Positions 3,704 to 20,609 of a DNA stretch of 42,554 nt are shown here, one piece after another (positions within the stretch are counted from its first letter, which is position 1; each line of letters starts with the position of its first letter). The DNA lies in the IMG/VR virus record IMGVR_UViG_2802429237_000001, positions 1 to 42,554 of that record. One strand, written 5' to 3'. This DNA is from a virus. Taxonomy: Duplodnaviria > Heunggongvirae > Uroviricota > Caudoviricetes. The notes beneath the pieces are model-generated. The model worked only from the letters and a program-made list of their open reading frames with translations, had not been told where the DNA came from and did not search any database. The translations under genes were made by a program, and so were the position numbers.

Positions 3704-6700
3704 TAAGCCAGATGCAGTGCTTCAAGACGACGAAGATCAAAGTCGTTTAATTCGTCGGTGTAACTTTCGGTAATCGGTGCTGGCCAGTTGTTTGTCTCCA
3801 GGGCTTCGTTTATCTGGCGTAGCGTCCGGCGATATTCCTGTCGACCAAGTTCCAGGAGTTCCTGCGAGGCTTCCACGACTGCCACCCAGTGATAGCCAGC
3901 ATCTTTGTTGACGAAGATCCAGAAAAATTTGTCCAGGTTTGCCACATCGCAATACATTGCGGCGCTGAGGTGATAATCACGCTCAATAATTTCACGGTGC
4001 AGGCGATCTTTAAGTCGTTCCTGTCGCACATAACCGAGGCTGACTGACTTCACGTCAGCGCAAATGCTTTCGTATGGCAGCCGGATTTCGATATCAGGAC
4101 GGACCCTGATTTCCAGCCCGGTTTCTTCATCAAACCCGAAATAGCTGATTTCAGATTTGCGATCCGGGTGGTTGAGTAGCCTTGCTGCATCGGTATTGTT
4201 TTGCAGTGCCGCGTGAATATTTTTTGCCTGTTCATACATATCCGGACTGATAAACGTTTTCCCGGCATTTTCTTCTTGCTGGCGTTTTTGCCAGTCCTCC
4301 AGTGTCACCAGTTCCGGGCGAATTTTCCGTGCGATTTCGGTTAATTGCTCTTTTGTGCCACTGATGTTGTAAGGCAAAGATTTAGCACGTTCTTTTTTTG
4401 CCAGTTCTGGGTCTACAGTTTCAATTTGATCCAGAAGCTGCTCCCGTGCTCCACTGGTTTTCAACAGAGGAGGGAGGCTTGCGTTGTATTCTTTAATACA
4501 GGCTTTCATTGCTGATGCTGTGTGTTTTTCCCCCTCAGGAATACGCCGAAATTCCACCGGAAGCGAACCGTAAAGGATGCCTGTTTCTTCGGCCCCGGCA
4601 CTTACAGACAGTGGCTGTATAAGAGTGCTGTTGTAGCTTTCGATCCACTCTTTCATCTGCTCTGGTGTCATCAGTGCTGGCAGACTGGCATTGTGTTTTT
4701 TAATGATGGCGATCAGTTCGCTAGAAGTAGTAACCACATATTCAGGAACCGGTACCGGAATGGCATATTCATCAGCGAATTTATCCGTTTCCAGAACATA
4801 GCTGTGAATGATCCGCCCACGCAGCAGTGCATCACTTTCCTCACTCGGAATAGTTCCGGCAATGTGCCGTCCGTGGTAATACATCAGGCTGATACGAGCA
4901 TCCTTCAGCATTGTGCTGCTTATTCCATTGGCAGAGTGATAAACCTCGTTTGGGAGGTTTTCATAGCGGCCTGGTTCGAAATATGATGGCCACATGATTT
5001 CAGTTGCTACAGGAGCTGACGCTTCACCAGTTTCATCACTGCAATTGTGATGCGAATCGCTGCCAGCGTTCTCCTTGTGCAGAGGTTCAGTGCCTTCCAT
5101 TTCCTCCGGATCTTTTTCCAGAGATTCATCCAGATTTTCTTCATTAAAGGTTTCCTGATACGTTGCGTCGCCCATTACCGCACCACAGTCGGGGCAGCTA
5201 TCCCCACCAGTCTGACCGCAGGCATTGCAGACTTTTTTCGGTTCCTGTTGCACTACTGGCTCAGGTTGTTTCACATCCGGGCTAGTTTTTTCAGTTTCTG
5301 GCGTGTTTTGTTCCGTTTCTGGCTGGTTCTGGTTCACAGAATCGCGAGTCTGGATCCCCTTAACCCATTTCGGATCATTCGGGTCGCTAATCCCTTCAAC
5401 AAATTCTCCACGCGAGGCAGCCAGCAATTTGTCTGCATCGACAGGATTTTTGGGCGGAATGTTTTTCCGGGCTTCATGGAGTTCTGCCCGCAGTTTCTGA
5501 TATTTCGCATCAACAGGGTTTACCTGTGACTGAGCATCCAGCGGCTGCGTGTCCTGATGATGTTCAGTTGCGTCCGGTTCCATTGTTTCAGCCGTTGCCT
5601 GTTCATCTGCCATTGCGCAAGATGGTTGCGGTTTTTCTTCATCATTCGGTTTTTCTTCTTCTGTTACACGCTGCGGCATCGGAGCAGAGGAGCGACCGCA
5701 GGCAATATCCACGATTTCCGGATCAGGGTTGGCATGATCGGTTTCAGTCAGTACTTTGTTCAGATATTCAGTGACGTGTGCGGGGATAACCTCGATACCA
5801 ATTGGTGCTTCTTTCACGGCCGCAACCACGATGGCACGGGAATAATCCAGCCCACCAGGCATGGCGATGAATTTGTCGCGGAAAACAGAAAAGGGTGGTT
5901 TATTTTCAGCGATAATTTCCTCGACACGTTTAGCGTGTGCTGGATGAAGGTTATAAATGTCCACGTCCATTGAACGGGCCAGTACGCCAGTGGCTACGTC
6001 GCGCGCCAGCGACGTCAGATCGTGAACGAAACCTTCGCCGCGGTCGGTAAGAATGCCGCCACCGGCATTTGCGCCCGACGGGGTGCGATTGATTTCAGAT
6101 ACGCAATTTCCTTTTGCCCACTCTTTTATCAGTAAGCTCTGATCCAGGTAATCGGTTTTCATCCAGGTGGATATGAACTTGTTGTATTCAGCCGGACTGA
6201 TGCGGCGAGTTTCTGCGTGAGTGAATGCCTTTTCCACGGAGCGCGCCAGTCTTTCCAGATGGTGGTTTGTCAGTTTATCCAGCTCAGGATGTGAGCGCAC
6301 CGCTGTAAGCATGCTCTGGAGGTTATGCTCCTCCATATCCATCTCCAGGCGGATCACGTCCTGGCGTTGTTCCGGTGTGGCGTGATGTTTGTATTTCCCA
6401 TTGAACTCCTGACCAAAGAAGTAGAGGTGCAGGAAACGATGAGCAAGACTGAGAGTGGCGACGGATACTTCGCAATCCTGGCAATCCCCGTGAGCGTCTG
6501 CCCGTGTGTTTTCTTCCTGGCCTCCCGCCGGTTCTTCGGTTTCCGGTGCATCCTCCTGATGGTGAACGTCGTCTGGCGCTGCTCCCGGTTTTAGTTCCCA
6601 GGTCATGGAGTCTTTGCTGAGTTGATAGCGTTCACTCCAGGTAAAATCGATCTCACCTTCAGGGGGAAGGTCATTAACGACAGGAAAATTCGTGGCAACA

Positions 6701-12882: not shown

Positions 12883-14049
12883 ATGATATCTGCGATGTTA
12901 TCAAATGTGAAAATATTTATGAATCTGCAAAAAAGAAGAAAAGTTCAAAAACTAAACTATCGCGGGCAAGTTTCGAAACTGAAGAGGGGGATATTTAATT
13001 CTCTGAAAAGCACGGATTGGGAAGGAGTAGAAAATGCGAAGAGAAAACTGGAATATTACAAACGCACTCGTAAGCTACGAGTCTCGAAGAAAAAGTTGAC
13101 AACAAGTAATAAAAGGGTGGTTTTTTCTGCTCCGATATCTATTAATTATTACAACGATCGTGATTTTGAAATCATGAATAAATTTTTAAATAATTTACGC
13201 GATTGCGTGTTGAAGAATAATCGTGTTTATATAGATTTTTCTTCAACTAAATATATAAGTGCAGCTGCTATGTTATCTTTTCTCGCTGAAGTTGATGTGC
13301 TTATTAAGAAAAGTGAATTTGGAGTAAATGCCATAGGGTTTTCACATCCGAAAGACAAGAAAATTGAAAGCATTTTGAATCAAGTCGGTTTCTATGATCT
13401 ATTAAGGAAACCTAAAAGAGAAACTGAAAGTTATGATGATGTGACTTTTTGGAAATATACATCAGGTTCTTGTTCTGAGCCTCTTTTAGCAAAAGAAATG
13501 ATGGTGGAAATAAAAAAAGAGTTAGAAAGAAAATCATCAAAAAAATTATACCGTGGCTTTACTGAGGCCATGTCTAATTCTGTCGAGCATGCTTATGTTG
13601 ATGATTTAATGCATACGGAAGATGACGAAACAGCTAAGTGGTGGACCTTTGCTGGCATACATGACAAAAATCTTACAGTGGTAATATGTGATAAAGGAGT
13701 GGGAATACCTTCAACATTGCCTAAAACACAAGGTGTAAGTGTGCTAATGAACATCTTCAAAAAACTTAGAGTTCCATTAGCAAATGTAAAGGATTCTACT
13801 TATATAAAGGCTTCCACGTTACTTCAGGAAACGAGGACTGGGGAGCTGAACCGAGGTAAAGGCTTGAATGATATCAAATCGGTAATCGATTCAATAGGTG
13901 ATGGTTTTATGGGGATTTTTTCATCAAAAGGGCGCTATATTTACAAAGGGAAAACTGGCATTATTAACGAAGTGCTTAGAGATTACAAAAGCTCTGTTAA
14001 TGGTACTATAATTGAATGGACAATTCCTTGTGAGGTGGAAACTGAGTAG
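12883..14049 (+). CDS. GHKL-family ATPase/serine-kinase-like protein (RsbW-like C-terminal domain) with Lys/Arg-rich N-terminus
   Basis: 388 aa; Bergerat-fold motifs: N-box EAMSNSVEHAY, G1 box ICDKGVGIP, G2 box NRGKGLNDIKS; N-terminal 75 residues highly basic; AT-rich coding sequence. Confidence 0.7.
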   Translation: MISAMLSNVKIFMNLQKRRKVQKLNYRGQVSKLKRGIFNSLKSTDWEGVENAKRKLEYYKRTRKLRVSKKKLTTSNKRVVFSAPISINYYNDRDFEIMNKFLNNLRDCVLKNNRVYIDFSSTKYISAAAMLSFLAEVDVLIKKSEFGVNAIGFSHPKDKKIESILNQVGFYDLLRKPKRETESYDDVTFWKYTSGSCSEPLLAKEMMVEIKKELERKSSKKLYRGFTEAMSNSVEHAYVDDLMHTEDDETAKWWTFAGIHDKNLTVVICDKGVGIPSTLPKTQGVSVLMNIFKKLRVPLANVKDSTYIKASTLLQETRTGELNRGKGLNDIKSVIDSIGDGFMGIFSSKGRYIYKGKTGIINEVLRDYKSSVNGTIIEWTIPCEVETE

Positions 14050-14050
14050 T

Positions 14051-14365
14051 ATGAAAATTATAAAAGTAGCCAGTCGTTATCCTTGCCCAGGACCTCGTTT
14101 TAAAAGATTGGGGCCCGCTTCTGGTGAGGAGTTTCGTGAGTGGGTAGAAAGAGAGCTTAAACATTCACCAGATCTAACAATAGACCTTGATGGAACGGAG
14201 GGGTATGGTTCTTCTTTCTTGGAGGAGTGCTTTGGCGGATTGATTAGGCGTGGCGTGAGTCCTGATAAGGTTAAAGGGATTAAATTTATCTCAGAAGAAG
14301 AACCTGAGTTAATTGACGAGATAAATGAATATATCGAGGACGCTATAAAGGTATCTCATGGCTAA
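14051..14365 (+). CDS. STAS-like domain protein (DUF4325-type)
   Basis: 104 aa; starts 2 nt after the upstream stop with SD gaggtgg; core LTIDLDGTEGYGSSFLEECFGGLIRRG resembles DUF4325/STAS-like proteins as I recall them. Confidence 0.65.
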   Translation: MKIIKVASRYPCPGPRFKRLGPASGEEFREWVERELKHSPDLTIDLDGTEGYGSSFLEECFGGLIRRGVSPDKVKGIKFISEEEPELIDEINEYIEDAIKVSHG

Positions 14366-14876
14366 TTCAAGTATCCAGGTCTGTACTTGGAGTGCAGACT
14401 TTTGGTGTAAGTTTTTTTCTTTGTTTAAAGATGAAAATCAGTATGTAACTTGGTTTTTAGTTTTAGTTGGATGGGGGATTACGGCATATATTGCTTATCT
14501 CCAAACCACAAAAAGTAGAGGAGATGCTATTAAAGATGCTCATAATGAATGGATCGGTGAGTTTAGACAAAAACTGGAGTTGCTTGAGGATTTTGCCTTA
14601 GAGTTCTGGGCTGAAGATAATAATAAAGAACCTACACTGGCGTTAGCAAAAATGAGTAGGGAGGTTAAGAGTTTAACTACTATCGCTAAAGAAATTGAAA
14701 GGGCCGGTGGTGAAAAATATAAGGCAAAATTGTTTAAGGAATTACGCCAAGCCATGACATATGATAGTGATGTTCACAACCGACCTCTAAGACCTGATTG
14801 TATGCAAATTGTTAGGATTAGAGAAACATGTGCAAGTTTGAGAAGTGCGTACGGGCGCAAAAGCTTGACTGAATAA
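14358..14876 (+). CDS. Single-pass membrane protein with coiled-coil-like C-terminal domain
   Basis: 172 aa; start overlaps the upstream stop (ATGGCTAA); one hydrophobic helix YVTWFLVLVGWGITAYIAYL (about residues 30-50); SD aaagg. Confidence 0.6.
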   Translation: MANSSIQVCTWSADFWCKFFSLFKDENQYVTWFLVLVGWGITAYIAYLQTTKSRGDAIKDAHNEWIGEFRQKLELLEDFALEFWAEDNNKEPTLALAKMSREVKSLTTIAKEIERAGGEKYKAKLFKELRQAMTYDSDVHNRPLRPDCMQIVRIRETCASLRSAYGRKSLTE

Positions 14877-15273
14877 CCTCATATTGCTGAGTAGCTGGTA
14901 CTGCATATTATTATGAAAACACATCGTGGTTTTTATATAAAAGCTGCTTATTATTAAGAGATCTGTTTTATGTTTTTGGCTAGTAAAATGTGATTCTTAA
15001 CTTAAATGTTCCCTTACACTAGATTTATAATATCATCGTGTGATTTATAAACTATGCATTAGTAATAATTAATTTTTCGGAAAAATAGTTAAGTAAAATT
15101 GCTGCGTGTGCTTGAGGCTATCTGCCTCGGGCATGAACACCAACGGCAGATAGAGAAAAGCCCAGTTAACATTACGCGTCCCGCAAGACGTTTAATATTA
15201 ATCTTAGGCCAATTTCATGCTAGACACATGGATGTTAGCCTCTTACGTGCCGAAAGGCAAGGAGAAGCAGGCT

Positions 15274-15429
15274 ATGAAGCAGCAAAAGGCGATGTTAGTC
15301 GCCCTGATCGTCATCTGTTTAACCGTCATTGTGACGGCACTGGTAACGAGGAAAGACCTCTGCGAGGTACGAATCCGAACCGGCCAGACGGAGGTCGCTG
15401 TCTTCACAGCTTACGAACCTGAGGAGTAA
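15274..15429 (+). CDS. hok: Hok/Gef-family type I toxin
   Basis: 51 aa MKQQKAMLVALIVICLTVIVTALVTRKDLCEVRIRTGQTEVAVFTAYEPEE; matches the Hok/HokD (RelF) pattern; in-frame upstream extension from 15217 may correspond to a mok-like leader. Confidence 0.8.
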   Translation: MKQQKAMLVALIVICLTVIVTALVTRKDLCEVRIRTGQTEVAVFTAYEPEE

Positions 15430-16482: not shown

Positions 16483-16772
16483 TGGTGGATTTACGTAAAG
16501 CGGCGCGGGGGCAGATGTGCACCGTCAGAATTCCTGGCTACTGCAATCACAATCCCGAAACTTCTGTGCTGGCGCATTACAGGCTGGCGGGGACGTGCGG
16601 AACAGCGACAAAACCACACGATATGCAGGCAGCGATTGCCTGTAGCTCATGCCACGATTTAATCGACGGGCGGGTAAAAACCAGCGATTACACCAAAGAA
16701 GAATTACGCCTGATGCATGCAGAAGGTGTTTTTCGCACACAAGAAATCTGGAGAAAGGAAGGTTATTTATGA
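16482..16772 (+). CDS. ybcO: YbcO-like putative nuclease (DUF1364-like, Cys-rich)
   Basis: 96 aa with cysteine pattern CTVRIPGYC...CGTATKP...ACSSCHDLIDGR resembling DLP12 YbcO as I recall it; same length. Confidence 0.7.
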   Translation: MVDLRKAARGQMCTVRIPGYCNHNPETSVLAHYRLAGTCGTATKPHDMQAAIACSSCHDLIDGRVKTSDYTKEELRLMHAEGVFRTQEIWRKEGYL

Positions 16773-17311
16773 TTTACCCAACAAATACAGGCAAAAGCGG
16801 GGAACACCTTCGTCTCACCACGCTGGAAAGTGTCTGGATTCAGGGAAAACTGCGCATGTGGGGGCGCTGGTCGTATATTGGCGGCGGTAAGACGGGAAAT
16901 ATGTTTAACCAGTTGCTGACCTCTAAAAAGCTGACAAAAACGGCAATTAACGAGGCGCTCCGGAGGATGAAAAAAGCAGGTCTGGACAAACCTGAACTTG
17001 AGGCTTTTTTGCGGGAGATGATCAACGGCAAGCAAAAAAGCTGGTTGGCGCATTGTACTGATGCAGAGGCGTTATGTATTGATAGAGTCATAAGTGAGGT
17101 GCTAGCAGAGCATCCTGGATTGATTAGTGTCCTCCGGCAACGGTATGAAGGACGGGGGATGACTAAGCGCAAAATGGCTGAATTGCTAAATGATGCACAT
17201 CCTGAGTGGTGTTTTAGCACATGCGAAAAGCGAATTGCTAATTGGTTGGCTGTTGCTGAGTATGCCCTATATATTCCCATGCGAGAATCATTTGCTCAAA
17301 AAATAGCTTGA
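16769..17311 (+). CDS. Putative late-gene antiterminator Q-like protein
   Basis: 180 aa from ATG at 16769 (ATGA overlap with ybcO stop); last gene of the early-right operon before a terminator and the lysis region. Family not confirmed. Confidence 0.45.
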   Translation: MIYPTNTGKSGEHLRLTTLESVWIQGKLRMWGRWSYIGGGKTGNMFNQLLTSKKLTKTAINEALRRMKKAGLDKPELEAFLREMINGKQKSWLAHCTDAEALCIDRVISEVLAEHPGLISVLRQRYEGRGMTKRKMAELLNDAHPEWCFSTCEKRIANWLAVAEYALYIPMRESFAQKIA

Positions 17312-17394
17312 TTTTTTACGCATAAACTGCTTCAATTCCGGTATGCTTCGCAAAGCTGTATCGCGAGGCGAACCAAGCGCATGAACTTTACCAG

Positions 17395-17423
17395 AACCCG
17401 CCATTGAGCGGGTTTTGTTGTTT
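17395..17423 (+). terminator. Intrinsic terminator downstream of the Q-like gene
   Basis: cccgcc-attga-gcggg followed by ttttgttgttt. Confidence 0.6.
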
Positions 17424-17436
17424 GAGGAGGGGGGGA

Positions 17437-17637
17437 ATGAATCAGACTGGTCAACCCAGCTATGCGCTTTTCGCTGGGAATGATAGCAACAACCTCAAAA
17501 CGTTTGTTCTTGAGGTTGATTGCTACCGCACTGAAGACGCGCTACTAGCAATGGAGAAAGCTATAAGCGAATTAAAAATCTGTCAGCGTCAGTTCGGCTA
17601 TGGAAATGATTCTGGTGTCAGAGCCATTATTCGATAA
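17437..17637 (+). CDS. Hypothetical small protein (66 aa)
   Basis: ATG at 17437 preceded by strong SD gaggaggggggg; 3' end overlaps the convergent minus-strand gene by 11 nt. Confidence 0.45.
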   Translation: MNQTGQPSYALFAGNDSNNLKTFVLEVDCYRTEDALLAMEKAISELKICQRQFGYGNDSGVRAIIR

Positions 17638-18175
17638 TTCTTTCTCCAATAATAACTGGCAATGGAATGAGTACCTCCCAGAATGGTTGATACCCTGCGT
17701 AAATCTGAGTTGTTTCTCCCTTCCAGTAAAGATCCAGCCTCTGAGATATTTCTACTGGGGAGCAGTTCAGATTTAACAAATTCATATCGCCTCTATGATA
17801 GTTCGACGATGAGTTGACTTGAAATATTGGGGTATCAAGTGGAAACTTTGAAAAACCTCTGAACCAGGCTGCTTCTTTTACAGACTCACATGCAAAAATT
17901 GATTGGAAACGCGATGGTTTTTCAGGGAAATGTGATTTTCTTCGTTCTTCCAGCAGTATTTCTATTATTGCTCCAAATCGTTCATCTGAGCTGACGAGGT
18001 TTATGTGGTAGTTGAAAAAAAGATTATTTGCATGCCTGGATACGCCGTCGGAAAACAATGAGCTCGTATGAGCCTGAAGTGGAACGATTGGGCAGTGCGG
18101 TTCAGTCAACTCAATTTTCATGCCTGACGTCAGTGTACGCAGCCTGTCAAGTGTGAAAAAAAGATGGTTCGCCAT
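17627..18175 (-). CDS. Hypothetical cargo protein (182 aa), opposite strand between Q-like gene and lysis genes
   Basis: ATG at 18175 with SD aggaaag; lower GC than flanks; no domain recognised. Confidence 0.6.
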   Translation of the reverse strand: MANHLFFTLDRLRTLTSGMKIELTEPHCPIVPLQAHTSSLFSDGVSRHANNLFFNYHINLVSSDERFGAIIEILLEERRKSHFPEKPSRFQSIFACESVKEAAWFRGFSKFPLDTPIFQVNSSSNYHRGDMNLLNLNCSPVEISQRLDLYWKGETTQIYAGYQPFWEVLIPLPVIIGERIIE

Positions 18176-18209
18176 ATTAATGCTTTCCTGCTGATATTGG
18201 TTATTTCTG

Positions 18210-18237
18210 TTGATTTAACGATATCAGGATATATAAG
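18210..18237 (+). promoter_or_regulatory. Candidate late promoter (PR'-like): ttgatt-N16-tataag
   Basis: -35-like ttgatt at 18210..18215 and -10-like tataag at 18232..18237; about 230 bp upstream of the holin gene and upstream of a terminator hairpin. Confidence 0.3.
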
Positions 18238-18342
18238 TGTAGTGAATACAATGCTGTAAAAGCGGTAGAGCAGCCTCCGCATCTGGTAGCCTGACTGGAT
18301 GAAATAGTGCAGTGATATTCCTAATAGCCACGATTAATAGAC

Positions 18343-18371
18343 CTCGGCATTTGCCGGGGTTTTTTATTTAA
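18343..18371 (+). terminator. tR'-like intrinsic terminator upstream of the lysis cassette
   Basis: cucggca-uu-ugccggg (one G-U pair) followed by guuuuuuauuu. Confidence 0.5.
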
Positions 18372-18465
18372 GGCCGCAGACAGGCCCATTTAGTGCAACG
18401 CCTTTCCCCGTTTCCGCTCCTGGAATATTCGGGGATTTTTTATTCCCTCAATTTGCACCCGCGAT

Positions 18466-18825
18466 ATGTGCGAGGTGAGAGATGATGAAATGCCTCATAA
18501 CCCAAATACCTGGCCGGACTGGCTGGAGTTGTTTCAGAGCTGGTGGCGTGGAGACACTCCGCTGGGCGCAGTGATTATGTCGATCGTTATGGCTGGTTTG
18601 CGCATCGCCTATTTTGGCGGTGGTGGGGGCTGGAAACGAAAAACGCTTGAGATTTTGCTCTGTGGTGCCCTGACGCTGACCTTTGCATCCGCGCTTGAGT
18701 ATGTCGGATGGCCTAAATCACTTTCTGTTGCCATTGGTGGAGGGGTGGGGCTGATTGGTGTTGATGCTATTCGTGGTGCGGCAATGAGGGTCATCGGTAA
18801 CAAGTTCGGTGCCCATAAGGAGTAA
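18466..18825 (+). CDS. S: Holin, lambda S-like class I
   Basis: Hydrophobic helices GAVIMSIVMAGLRIAYFGG, ILLCGALTLTFASALEYVGW, SVAIGGGVGLIGV arranged like lambda S; probable start at ATG 18490 (SD gaggtgaga) with upstream in-frame ATG at 18466. Confidence 0.8.
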   Translation: MCEVRDDEMPHNPNTWPDWLELFQSWWRGDTPLGAVIMSIVMAGLRIAYFGGGGGWKRKTLEILLCGALTLTFASALEYVGWPKSLSVAIGGGVGLIGVDAIRGAAMRVIGNKFGAHKE

Positions 18826-20147: not shown

Positions 20148-20609
20148 CTATCCGTGGAAAATATTTGCATCCAAATCATCTATGAGATTAGACCTAACTG
20201 ATTCATAATTTTTCCCATATGCGGCCCCTTTACCTGAATGGGTTACATGCCCAATAGGACCGTACAGAAGTATAGAGATTGTGAATGATATTTCATCAGA
20301 AATGCCGCCTATCTTTTGAAACCAAAGTTCCGGGTTACGATTCCGGTCGGTTACAACGTCAAATACAAGCGCGATAAGATCTGGGAGATAGTACATGTTA
20401 AATCCGCCATTTGGGGTCAACTCGAGATTCAACAGGTCTTTGATGGAGGGATAATTGCTTACATCATCCTGAATGCCATTCTTAAGAGCTGTAAACACAA
20501 AGTTCAGCATTTCAGCAACTTTATCTTTGTTTGGTTCTACTCCATTTCTGAAGGACCGCTCTCCAGATTCATATTTTTCAACACAAAAATCTAATAAATT
20601 CATTATCAT
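20148..20609 (-). CDS. Hypothetical cargo protein (about 151 aa) at the lambda bor position
   Basis: Opposite-strand AT-rich ORF between lysis cassette and terminase; probable start ATG at 20603; its RBS overlaps the terS RBS on the other strand; no domain recognised. Confidence 0.6.
   Translation of the reverse strand: MIMNLLDFCVEKYESGERSFRNGVEPNKDKVAEMLNFVFTALKNGIQDDVSNYPSIKDLLNLELTPNGGFNMYYLPDLIALVFDVVTDRNRNPELWFQKIGGISDEISFTISILLYGPIGHVTHSGKGAAYGKNYESVRSNLIDDLDANIFHG

Follow-up and report, generated by a model that had tools for sequence, protein, structure and literature searches.

In lambdoid phages, the late transcription unit has a common anatomy of promoter, pause site, and terminator tR', as in lambda, phage 82, and the Shiga toxin (Stx) phages; stx lies between Q and S in the Stx phages, and the lambda bor gene, antisense to the late operon, is expressed in the lysogen. 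To our knowledge, the DUF2441/BC2332-like proteins are one of the few branches of the ADP-ribosyltransferase (ART) fold with a crystal structure (2005) and without a known activity, target, or role. DUF2441 has been placed in the Pfam ART clan (PMC7955679), and the 'BC2332-like' proteins make up SCOP family d.166.1.6 (PMC3000352). The active-site geometry of Bacillus cereus BC2332 (PDB 2AUA) matched that of diphtheria toxin in a ProFunc template comparison that gave no residue numbers, and the authors' guess was that BC2332 is an enterotoxin (PMC3024214). Here we describe a DUF2441 gene of 182 amino acids (aa) that converges on a gene of 66 aa in a Rac/lambda-like prophage, IMG/VR record IMGVR_UViG_2802429237_000001; "the window" denotes the whole 42,554-nucleotide (nt) stretch analyzed. 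The two genes constitute a mobile two-gene phage accessory module, and we tentatively propose that it couples an ART-fold enzyme to the decision between lysogeny and lysis.

The convergent gene pair and its cassette

The small gene occupies positions 17437-17637 on the plus strand and the DUF2441 gene positions 17627-18175 on the minus strand, with the coding regions overlapping tail to tail by 11 nt (TTATTCGATAA, 17627-17637) and both stop codons located inside the overlap. These coordinates confirm the convergent pair described in an earlier reading of the letters alone, referred to below as the sequence-only reading. Both open reading frames (ORFs) match PHROG families (E = 2.8e-40 and 2.9e-58), and the ratios of nonsynonymous to synonymous substitution rates (dN/dS) against homologues are low, 0.04-0.27 for the small gene and 0.08-0.12 for the large gene. 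Given these low ratios and strong matches, the two ORFs are, as judged from sequence conservation, genuine genes under purifying selection rather than chance ORFs. Neither protein had a match in PADLOC-DB v2 at E <= 1 or in a scan of NCBIfam.

Loci for comparison were gathered through the enzyme, through the small protein, and from annotated phages; a scan of genome contigs yielded only one locus, viral contigs and exact-sequence look-ups being far more productive. In 56 of the 63 DUF2441 loci, an ORF of the small family converges on the 3' end of the enzyme gene, at tail spacings of -11, -10, -4, +4, or +8 nt, and this convergent arrangement is kept down to ~33% enzyme identity, where the partner has 77 aa and still aligns with the 66-aa protein. 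The pair is present in Salmonella, Serratia, Yersinia, and Pseudomonas prophages and in a Klebsiella phage; index entries for the Salmonella form point to more than 4600 collection blocks, mostly Salmonella assemblies, and this form was intact in 10 of the 10 places inspected. The upstream antiterminators belong to the DUF1133, Phage_antitermQ, and PF03589 Antiterm families, and the holins encoded downstream are of three types. In Pseudomonas prophages the pair adjoins a gene for a CI-like repressor, with a putative AbiC gene ~1.2 kb away; HicAB adjoins it in Serratia and Salmonella; and in Klebsiella phage KP12 (OM835952.1) it lies just upstream of the holin gene. Because 56 of 63 loci preserve the convergent, abutting layout, at enzyme identities as low as ~33% and in three contexts, the sequence comparison indicates that the two genes are a functional pair and that their adjacency is not due to chance. 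By the same comparison, the phage-borne DUF2441 clade is one half of a conserved convergent pair and not a stand-alone gene.

The two proteins diverge in a correlated manner (Spearman 0.73), with the small protein more conserved than the enzyme (98.5% vs. 94%, 85% vs. 81%, and 64% vs. 53%). Both genes are frameshifted in locus L011. In the Cedecea-type lineage only about the 16 last codons of the small gene are left, and in L033 a methylase gene replaces it; the enzyme gene and its promoter motif are intact in both cases. An intact enzyme gene with a truncated or absent partner was recorded in L009, L010, L019, L020, and L033, which represent few lineages, the ratio of nonsynonymous to synonymous polymorphism (pN/pS) of 0.39 being derived from only 12 differences.

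Several individual loci deserve comment. Two Salmonella loci considered as enzyme-less (L048 and L053) turned out to be annotation gaps in which the ORF is intact. In KP12, the small-family gene is unannotated and lies at ~4500-4760 on the minus strand, between the DUF2441 gene KP12_281 and the holin gene; in loci of the KP12 and L038 types, the small ORF extends 80-107 nt into the enzyme gene, which fits the longer partner forms of 107-109 aa that exist in the family. Streptococcus phage Javan642 and Gordonia phage Yeezy also have small genes next to DUF2441; these were considered as partners and rejected, since they are not detectably homologous to the 66-aa family. In the Javan642 locus (L046, 3950-4664), the small gene encodes 59 aa, converges on the DUF2441 homologue Javan642_0015, and overlaps it by 26 nt; it may be an analogous partner.

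The 182-aa protein matches Pfam DUF2441 (PF10386) over residues 62-153 with 27.8 bits against a gathering cut-off of 25 (E = 2.7e-06), and all 20 homologues carry this domain. A profile of 57 relatives matches BC2332, the only solved member of the family, with E = 1.8e-13, at ~21% identity between BC2332 and the window protein. The predicted structure (predicted local distance difference test score [pLDDT] 89.5) displays the split beta-sheet of the ART fold and is similar to 2AUA. On this combination of sequence and model evidence, the protein is a DUF2441/BC2332-like enzyme of the ART fold, predicted to use NAD; the statement of the sequence-only reading that neither protein matches a family has to be withdrawn for both, the 66-aa protein belonging to phrog_10826. 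An exhaustive hidden Markov model (HMM) search collected 1062 representative relatives, mostly stand-alone proteins of 170-190 aa, and members of the DUF2441 family occur widely among phages of Proteobacteria, Firmicutes, and Actinobacteria, some of the genes of other clades standing alone.

Residues E76, R79, R89, Y150, W151, and E167 are invariant among 57 diverse members sharing 26-68% identity, and all of them are present in the window protein, a pattern that fits a conserved active site. R89, located just before a strand, Y150, and the strand-borne E167 are candidates for the residues of an H-Y-E or R-S-E triad. In a profile search of the PDB at E <= 10, 2AUA was the sole ART matched. The neighbours of the enzyme model in fold searches include DarT, RES, ParT, and MbcT; similarity to the effectors OspC3 and the Salmonella ARF1-dependent effector and to the classical exotoxins is weak, the match to AcrF11 (PDB 6KYF) spans 71 residues with 10% identity, and a search of BFVD returned only uncharacterised members of the same family. 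Two further observations concern the family at large. In a 572-aa protein (P0075; locus L064, 2230-3948), DUF2441 is the C-terminal domain of a fusion with a CHAT (caspase-like protease) domain; genes for PCNA and primase of archaeal type are on the same contig. The fusion hints that DUF2441 can act as an effector domain in conflict systems. In addition, a Salmonella Typhimurium 14028S gene annotated as encoding a DUF2441 domain (STM14_RS06850) is listed as differentially expressed in non-induced cultures (PMC9867438), a lead and not evidence; should it be the prophage gene, it would document expression in the lysogen.

The family of the 66-aa protein, phrog_10826, comprises at least 66 sequence clusters from Enterobacterales and Pseudomonas, all annotated as 'hypothetical'. 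Its model consists of a beta-alpha-beta unit with a disordered N-terminus (pLDDT 72), and nothing similar was found in the PDB. The protein is neither basic nor hydrophobic, and no DNA-binding domain or fold was detectable in it with Pfam, the model, and the fold search.

The pair resides in a low-GC cassette of 903 base pairs (bp) (17424-18326) with exact boundaries: in alignment with an E. coli prophage (L001), the BLAST breakpoints fall at 17423/17424 and 18326/18327, homology of 99.6% extending up to 17423 and resuming at 18327 with 97.4%, and this prophage carries 208 unrelated bases where the window has 903. The lower GC content noted in the sequence-only reading is borne out (0.39-0.43 against ~0.46-0.56 in the flanks), as is its view of the site as a cargo or moron hotspot: the Q-to-holin interval, when compared across related prophages, is occupied in other cases by ORF6N, HicAB, Bro-N, SET-domain protein, and IS200-type genes. 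The exact breakpoints, lower GC, conserved promoter-like element, and flanking terminators are those of a lambdoid 'moron', so far as sequence features can define one. Of the flanking terminators, one precedes the small gene and is described below; just past the cassette, the terminator scan found a plus-strand intrinsic terminator with a 10-bp stem (18339-18370) in a segment common to E. coli prophages, and a further plus-strand terminator-like hairpin before the holin gene (18418-18444). The cassette is absent from 5426 complete E. coli genomes, even with a search at blastn sensitivity for distant matches; 1490 of these genomes match the flanks of the region, not its centre. Identical proteins have been deposited (AUT26751.1 and AUT26752.1, 'MULTISPECIES: Escherichia'), and the cluster includes members from E. 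marmotae, E. albertii, E. whittamii, and draft E. coli genomes. The existing annotation of the cassette is limited to 'DUF2441 domain-containing protein' and 'hypothetical protein'.

Control signals of the two genes

The segment that directly follows the Q-like antiterminator gene (17308-17423) contains, in this order, a candidate promoter, a -10-like TATGCT, a conserved leader, and a terminator. The candidate late promoter, of the pR' type (17308-17347, plus strand), has a -35 element TTGATT (17308-17313), a 17-nt spacer, and a -10 element TTCAAT (17331-17336), with the TATGCT (17342-17347) at the transcript start; the same layout with variant hexamers follows the DUF1133 Q genes of L001, L006, and L004, at Q identities of 97%, 72%, and 51%. 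The tR'-like intrinsic terminator (17392-17423, plus strand) is formed by a hairpin at 17392-17417 (10-bp stem with 6 GC pairs in the terminator scan; dG -16.1) and a T-rich tail reaching 17423, the very position at which homology to the E. coli prophage stops. The sequence-only reading had put the cargo between the Q-like gene and the late promoter, which is probably wrong. Since the promoter-terminator unit comes directly after Q and is conserved with DUF1133 Q genes at 51-97% identity, the late promoter and its first terminator most likely precede the cargo, an arrangement known for stx in the Stx phages. In a metagenome contig with a 99%-identical cassette (L002, 6730-6900 and 7480-7780), the promoter-leader-terminator unit sits after an extra ORF6N gene, and Q is followed by a different promoter-terminator unit (TTGACT...TATATT), giving two such units in series.

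The T-rich tail ends one base before the Shine-Dalgarno (SD) sequence of the small gene, which consists of GAGGAGG followed by a poly-G spacer (GAGGAGGGGGGG, 17424-17435, within the element at 17424-17436, plus strand) and leads to the ATG at 17437. The unusually strong SD of an ORF placed right after a terminator was correctly recognized in the sequence-only reading, the region of which, starting at 17395, includes the terminator. The window shares with Salmonella, Serratia, L026, and L032 a terminator-SD-ATG layout in which ~18-21 nt, occupied by the SD, separate the end of the T-tail from the start codon of the small gene; the stem sequences differ by lineage. With the small gene directly behind the terminator, any polymerase transcribing it must read through the terminator. 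The poly-G run (17429-17435) has 7 G in the window and 6, 9, or 10 G in cassettes whose proteins share 94-100% identity (L002, L011, and L013-L017); a hypermutable homopolymer in the spacer between SD and start codon could tune or phase-vary the translation of the partner.

The enzyme gene has a candidate promoter of its own (18218-18246, minus strand), with a -35 element TTCACT (18246-18241), a 17-nt spacer, and an extended -10 element TGATATCGT (18226-18218). The motif TGATAT[CT][GA]T, an extended -10 of the form TGnTATnnT, was found 40-51 nt ahead of the start codon in each of the 20 distinct enterobacterial upstream regions compared, even at 37-47% identity of the enzyme proteins, and this conservation leads us to infer its promoter-like function. 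The gene also has its own SD, AGGA, 10 nt before the ATG, as the sequence-only reading had stated, and in lambdoid prophages it is antisense to the late operon. The -10 and the early 5' untranslated region are spanned by an imperfect palindrome of CTGATATCGTTA, a 12-nt spacer, and TAACCAATATCAG (18191-18227, minus strand; arms 18227-18216 and 18203-18191). Comparable inverted repeats occur in L018, L058, L034, L021, and L033, diverged loci included, and the palindrome is a possible operator. No second copy was found in the window, immunity region included, which rules it out as an operator of the prophage's own repressor.

Taken together, the conserved signals suggest separate control of the two genes. 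The terminator scan found no plus-strand terminator between them, the sole terminator-like site there being a weak hairpin with a 5-bp stem on the minus strand (18074-18061), inside the enzyme gene; each transcript would thus run antisense into the other gene, and mutual antisense transcription, in line with the sequence-only reading, is possible. Rfam 15 gave only sub-threshold, chance-level matches between 17200 and 18500 (E = 0.066 and 0.41), so that no known small RNA (sRNA) or riboswitch accounts for the leader or the overlap.

A proposed switch tied to late antitermination and its alternatives

The reading that we favor, with a probability of roughly 40%, is that the ART-fold enzyme is expressed in the lysogen and is counteracted by a partner whose synthesis requires Q antitermination. 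In the lysogen, the enzyme would be made from its own promoter and would use NAD+ to modify, or deplete, a target, its likeliest role being the exclusion of other phages or defence, or some other conditioning of the host. Upon prophage induction, Q-modified RNA polymerase would start at the promoter next to Q, pass the terminator, and yield plentiful partner protein; the same polymerase would transcribe antisense over the whole enzyme gene and silence it, while the partner would bind and neutralise the enzyme already present, sparing the late development of the phage. The pair would then be a switch coupled to the lysogeny-lysis decision and not an addiction module, the latter because loci with a truncated or missing partner still have an intact enzyme gene and promoter motif. 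Such a mechanism accounts for the orientation of the genes, the gating by the terminator, the strong SD, and the tolerated loss of the partner in lysogens. The neighbourhood of the family is defence-like, with AbiC near the Pseudomonas loci, HicAB beside the pair, and a relative fused to a CHAT protease. A narrower version, which we regard as doubtful, is that of a previously undescribed prophage immunity switch, in which the lysogen's ART effector would block superinfecting phages through an NAD+-dependent modification, and the Q-gated inhibitor, together with antisense transcription, would disarm it at the commitment to lysis.

Several points weigh against the proposed switch. The late promoter at 17308-17347 is one that we infer from conservation and layout only and that a simple promoter scan, at its threshold, did not call. 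The lambda pR' promoter is constitutive; if the Q-adjacent promoter is constitutive as well, leaky read-through and the strong SD could supply the partner in the lysogen too. In KP12 and L036, the enzyme gene is co-directional with the holin gene, and the small gene is in the opposite orientation without a preceding terminator, so that the gating by a terminator belongs to the lambdoid context and not to the module everywhere. The correlated divergence of the two proteins could reflect mere genetic linkage. The model of the partner is of moderate confidence only and similar to nothing known, and in the literature on DUF2441, BC2332, and PF10386, no functional study or reported activity was found.

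A classical toxin-antitoxin (TA) or addiction system, with the DUF2441 protein as a constitutively dangerous ART toxin and the 66-aa protein as an always required antitoxin supplied through leaky read-through and a very strong SD, appears unlikely to us, even though the structural neighbours include DarT, RES, ParT, and MbcT, ART toxins with dedicated small partners, the pairing is strict with the pair travelling as a unit, other TA loci (HicAB and hok/sok) reside in the same prophages, and the variable poly-G tract could tune antitoxin translation. Of the hallmarks of a type II system, conserved two-gene linkage is present (56/63 loci); co-transcription and a toxin that needs its antitoxin are not. 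The genes converge and form no operon in which they could be co-transcribed and autoregulated, and one to three terminators precede the gene of the presumed antitoxin. The Cedecea-type lineage and L033 have an intact enzyme gene and no intact partner. The partner itself shows no detectable DNA-binding fold and is the slower-evolving of the two proteins, which antitoxins usually are not. The toxin/immunity-like pair proposed in the sequence-only reading is thus upheld as regards functional pairing across the loci, and it is the classical form that is opposed by the partner-less enzyme lineages, the slower-evolving partner, and its place behind the terminator.

Less probable still is a role in counter-defence or host takeover, in which the ART would modify host defences or machinery during infection, in the manner of AcrF11 or T4 Alt/Mod, with the small protein as a regulator or cofactor. 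The wide occurrence of DUF2441 in phages of Proteobacteria, Firmicutes, and Actinobacteria, the weak resemblance to AcrF11, and the co-directionality of the KP12 and L036 enzyme genes with neighbouring phage genes would agree with it; in the lambdoid and Pseudomonas loci, however, the enzyme gene runs against the lytic operons and is preceded by a conserved promoter-like element, a lysogen-expressed layout comparable to that of lambda bor, late transcription would oppose its expression, and the AcrF11 match amounts to 71 residues at 10% identity. The position shared with stx in the Stx phages, the largely animal- or insect-associated hosts (Salmonella, Yersinia, Escherichia, Sodalis, Arsenophonus, and Providencia), the weak fold similarity to OspC3, the Salmonella ARF1-dependent effector, and the classical exotoxins, and the enterotoxin guess for BC2332 (PMC3024214) could be taken to indicate a virulence factor of lysogenic conversion, that is, an ART delivered to or acting on eukaryotic cells with the small protein as a chaperone or helper. 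We consider this quite improbable: the 182-aa protein is a bare catalytic domain, neither an export signal nor a domain for delivery having been identified, its relatives include proteins of soil Gordonia phages, environmental Pseudomonas prophages, and the archaeal CHAT fusion, and the partner is unlike secretion chaperones. That two unrelated cargo genes came to lie side by side by chance in a recombination hotspot would be in keeping with a slot that collects unrelated cargo and with the DUF2441 genes of other clades that stand alone; this is effectively refuted by the conservation data, the two families being convergent and abutting in 56 of the 63 loci, in at least three unrelated contexts and to ~33% identity, and the two genes decaying together in L011.

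If the proposed switch is correct, it would provide a function for an orphan enzyme family and an ART-based addition to the repertoire of prophage-encoded defence and exclusion, and it would illustrate how a prophage exempts itself from its own weapon through an antidote wired to the lysis decision; in the narrower version, the immunity switch would be a defence system with built-in self-exemption tied to Q antitermination. The pair is a good candidate for a new phage-borne toxin or defence switch, and the searchable literature yielded no account of the partner, of the conserved convergent layout, or of the regulatory wiring. Even if the idea of defence is wrong, two small genes and six invariant residues make a compact and defined experimental target.

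Prophage setting and comparison with known systems

The window encodes an integrase (731-1807) and RecT and RecE homologues, and Rfam identifies RyeA/SraC and SdsR/RyeB (459-603), the RalA antitoxin RNA (2165-2343), and the sok antitoxin RNA (15106-15279). The host sRNAs RyeA/SraC and SdsR/RyeB adjoin the integrase, which indicates an attachment site near yebY, and the host flank is 88% identical to every complete E. coli genome, from which we take the host to be an Escherichia species other than E. coli. Upstream of the cassette and outside it lies the Q-like late antiterminator gene (16769-17311, plus strand), assigned to Pfam DUF1133 (1.2e-108) and to phrog_753, 'anti-termination protein Q-like' (1.4e-80), with a weak match to Phage_antitermQ. 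Downstream, the lysis cassette starts with a holin gene of the lambda S family (18490-18825, plus strand; Phage_holin_3_1, 2.6e-27), in agreement with the RefSeq annotation of the 99%-identical gene of L001. Between the lysis genes and the small terminase subunit gene, an antisense ORF of 153 aa (20148-20609, minus strand) without a Pfam match may be another moron, and two plus-strand ORFs of 388 aa (12883-14049) and 172 aa (14358-14876), located between the replication region and hok/sok and without a Pfam family, may be further accessory cargo.

Among described proteins, BC2332 (PDB 2AUA; PF10386; SCOP d.166.1.6) provides the fold and the probable NAD-dependent chemistry of the 182-aa protein, not its target. 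It is itself functionally uncharacterised and shares only ~21% identity, and no partner gene of BC2332 has been described. The pairs DarT-DarG, RES-Xre, ParT-ParS, and MbcT-MbcA resemble the cassette in combining, on mobile elements, an ART-fold enzyme with a dedicated partner, neutralising in those pairs and predicted to be so in the cassette. AcrF11 is unlike it: the cassette gene, which runs against the lytic operons from a putative promoter of its own, is a poor fit for an early anti-defence gene, and no Aca-type regulator is present in the cassette.

Some restriction-modification systems and type I TA systems, for example, the hok/sok locus of the window, also consist of convergent genes in a tail-to-tail layout, with control through transcriptional interference or antisense RNA. 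Unlike those systems, the cassette encodes two conserved proteins under purifying selection and no methylase or nuclease, and its small partner differs both from RNA antitoxins and from hydrophobic peptides. The closest likeness in position is to the stx and lambda bor morons, with which the cassette shares the slot, the lower GC, a (putative) promoter of its own, flanking terminators, and exchange between near-identical prophages. The cargo differs, and the cassette is distinct in being a convergent two-gene unit with one gene running with, and the other against, the late operon.

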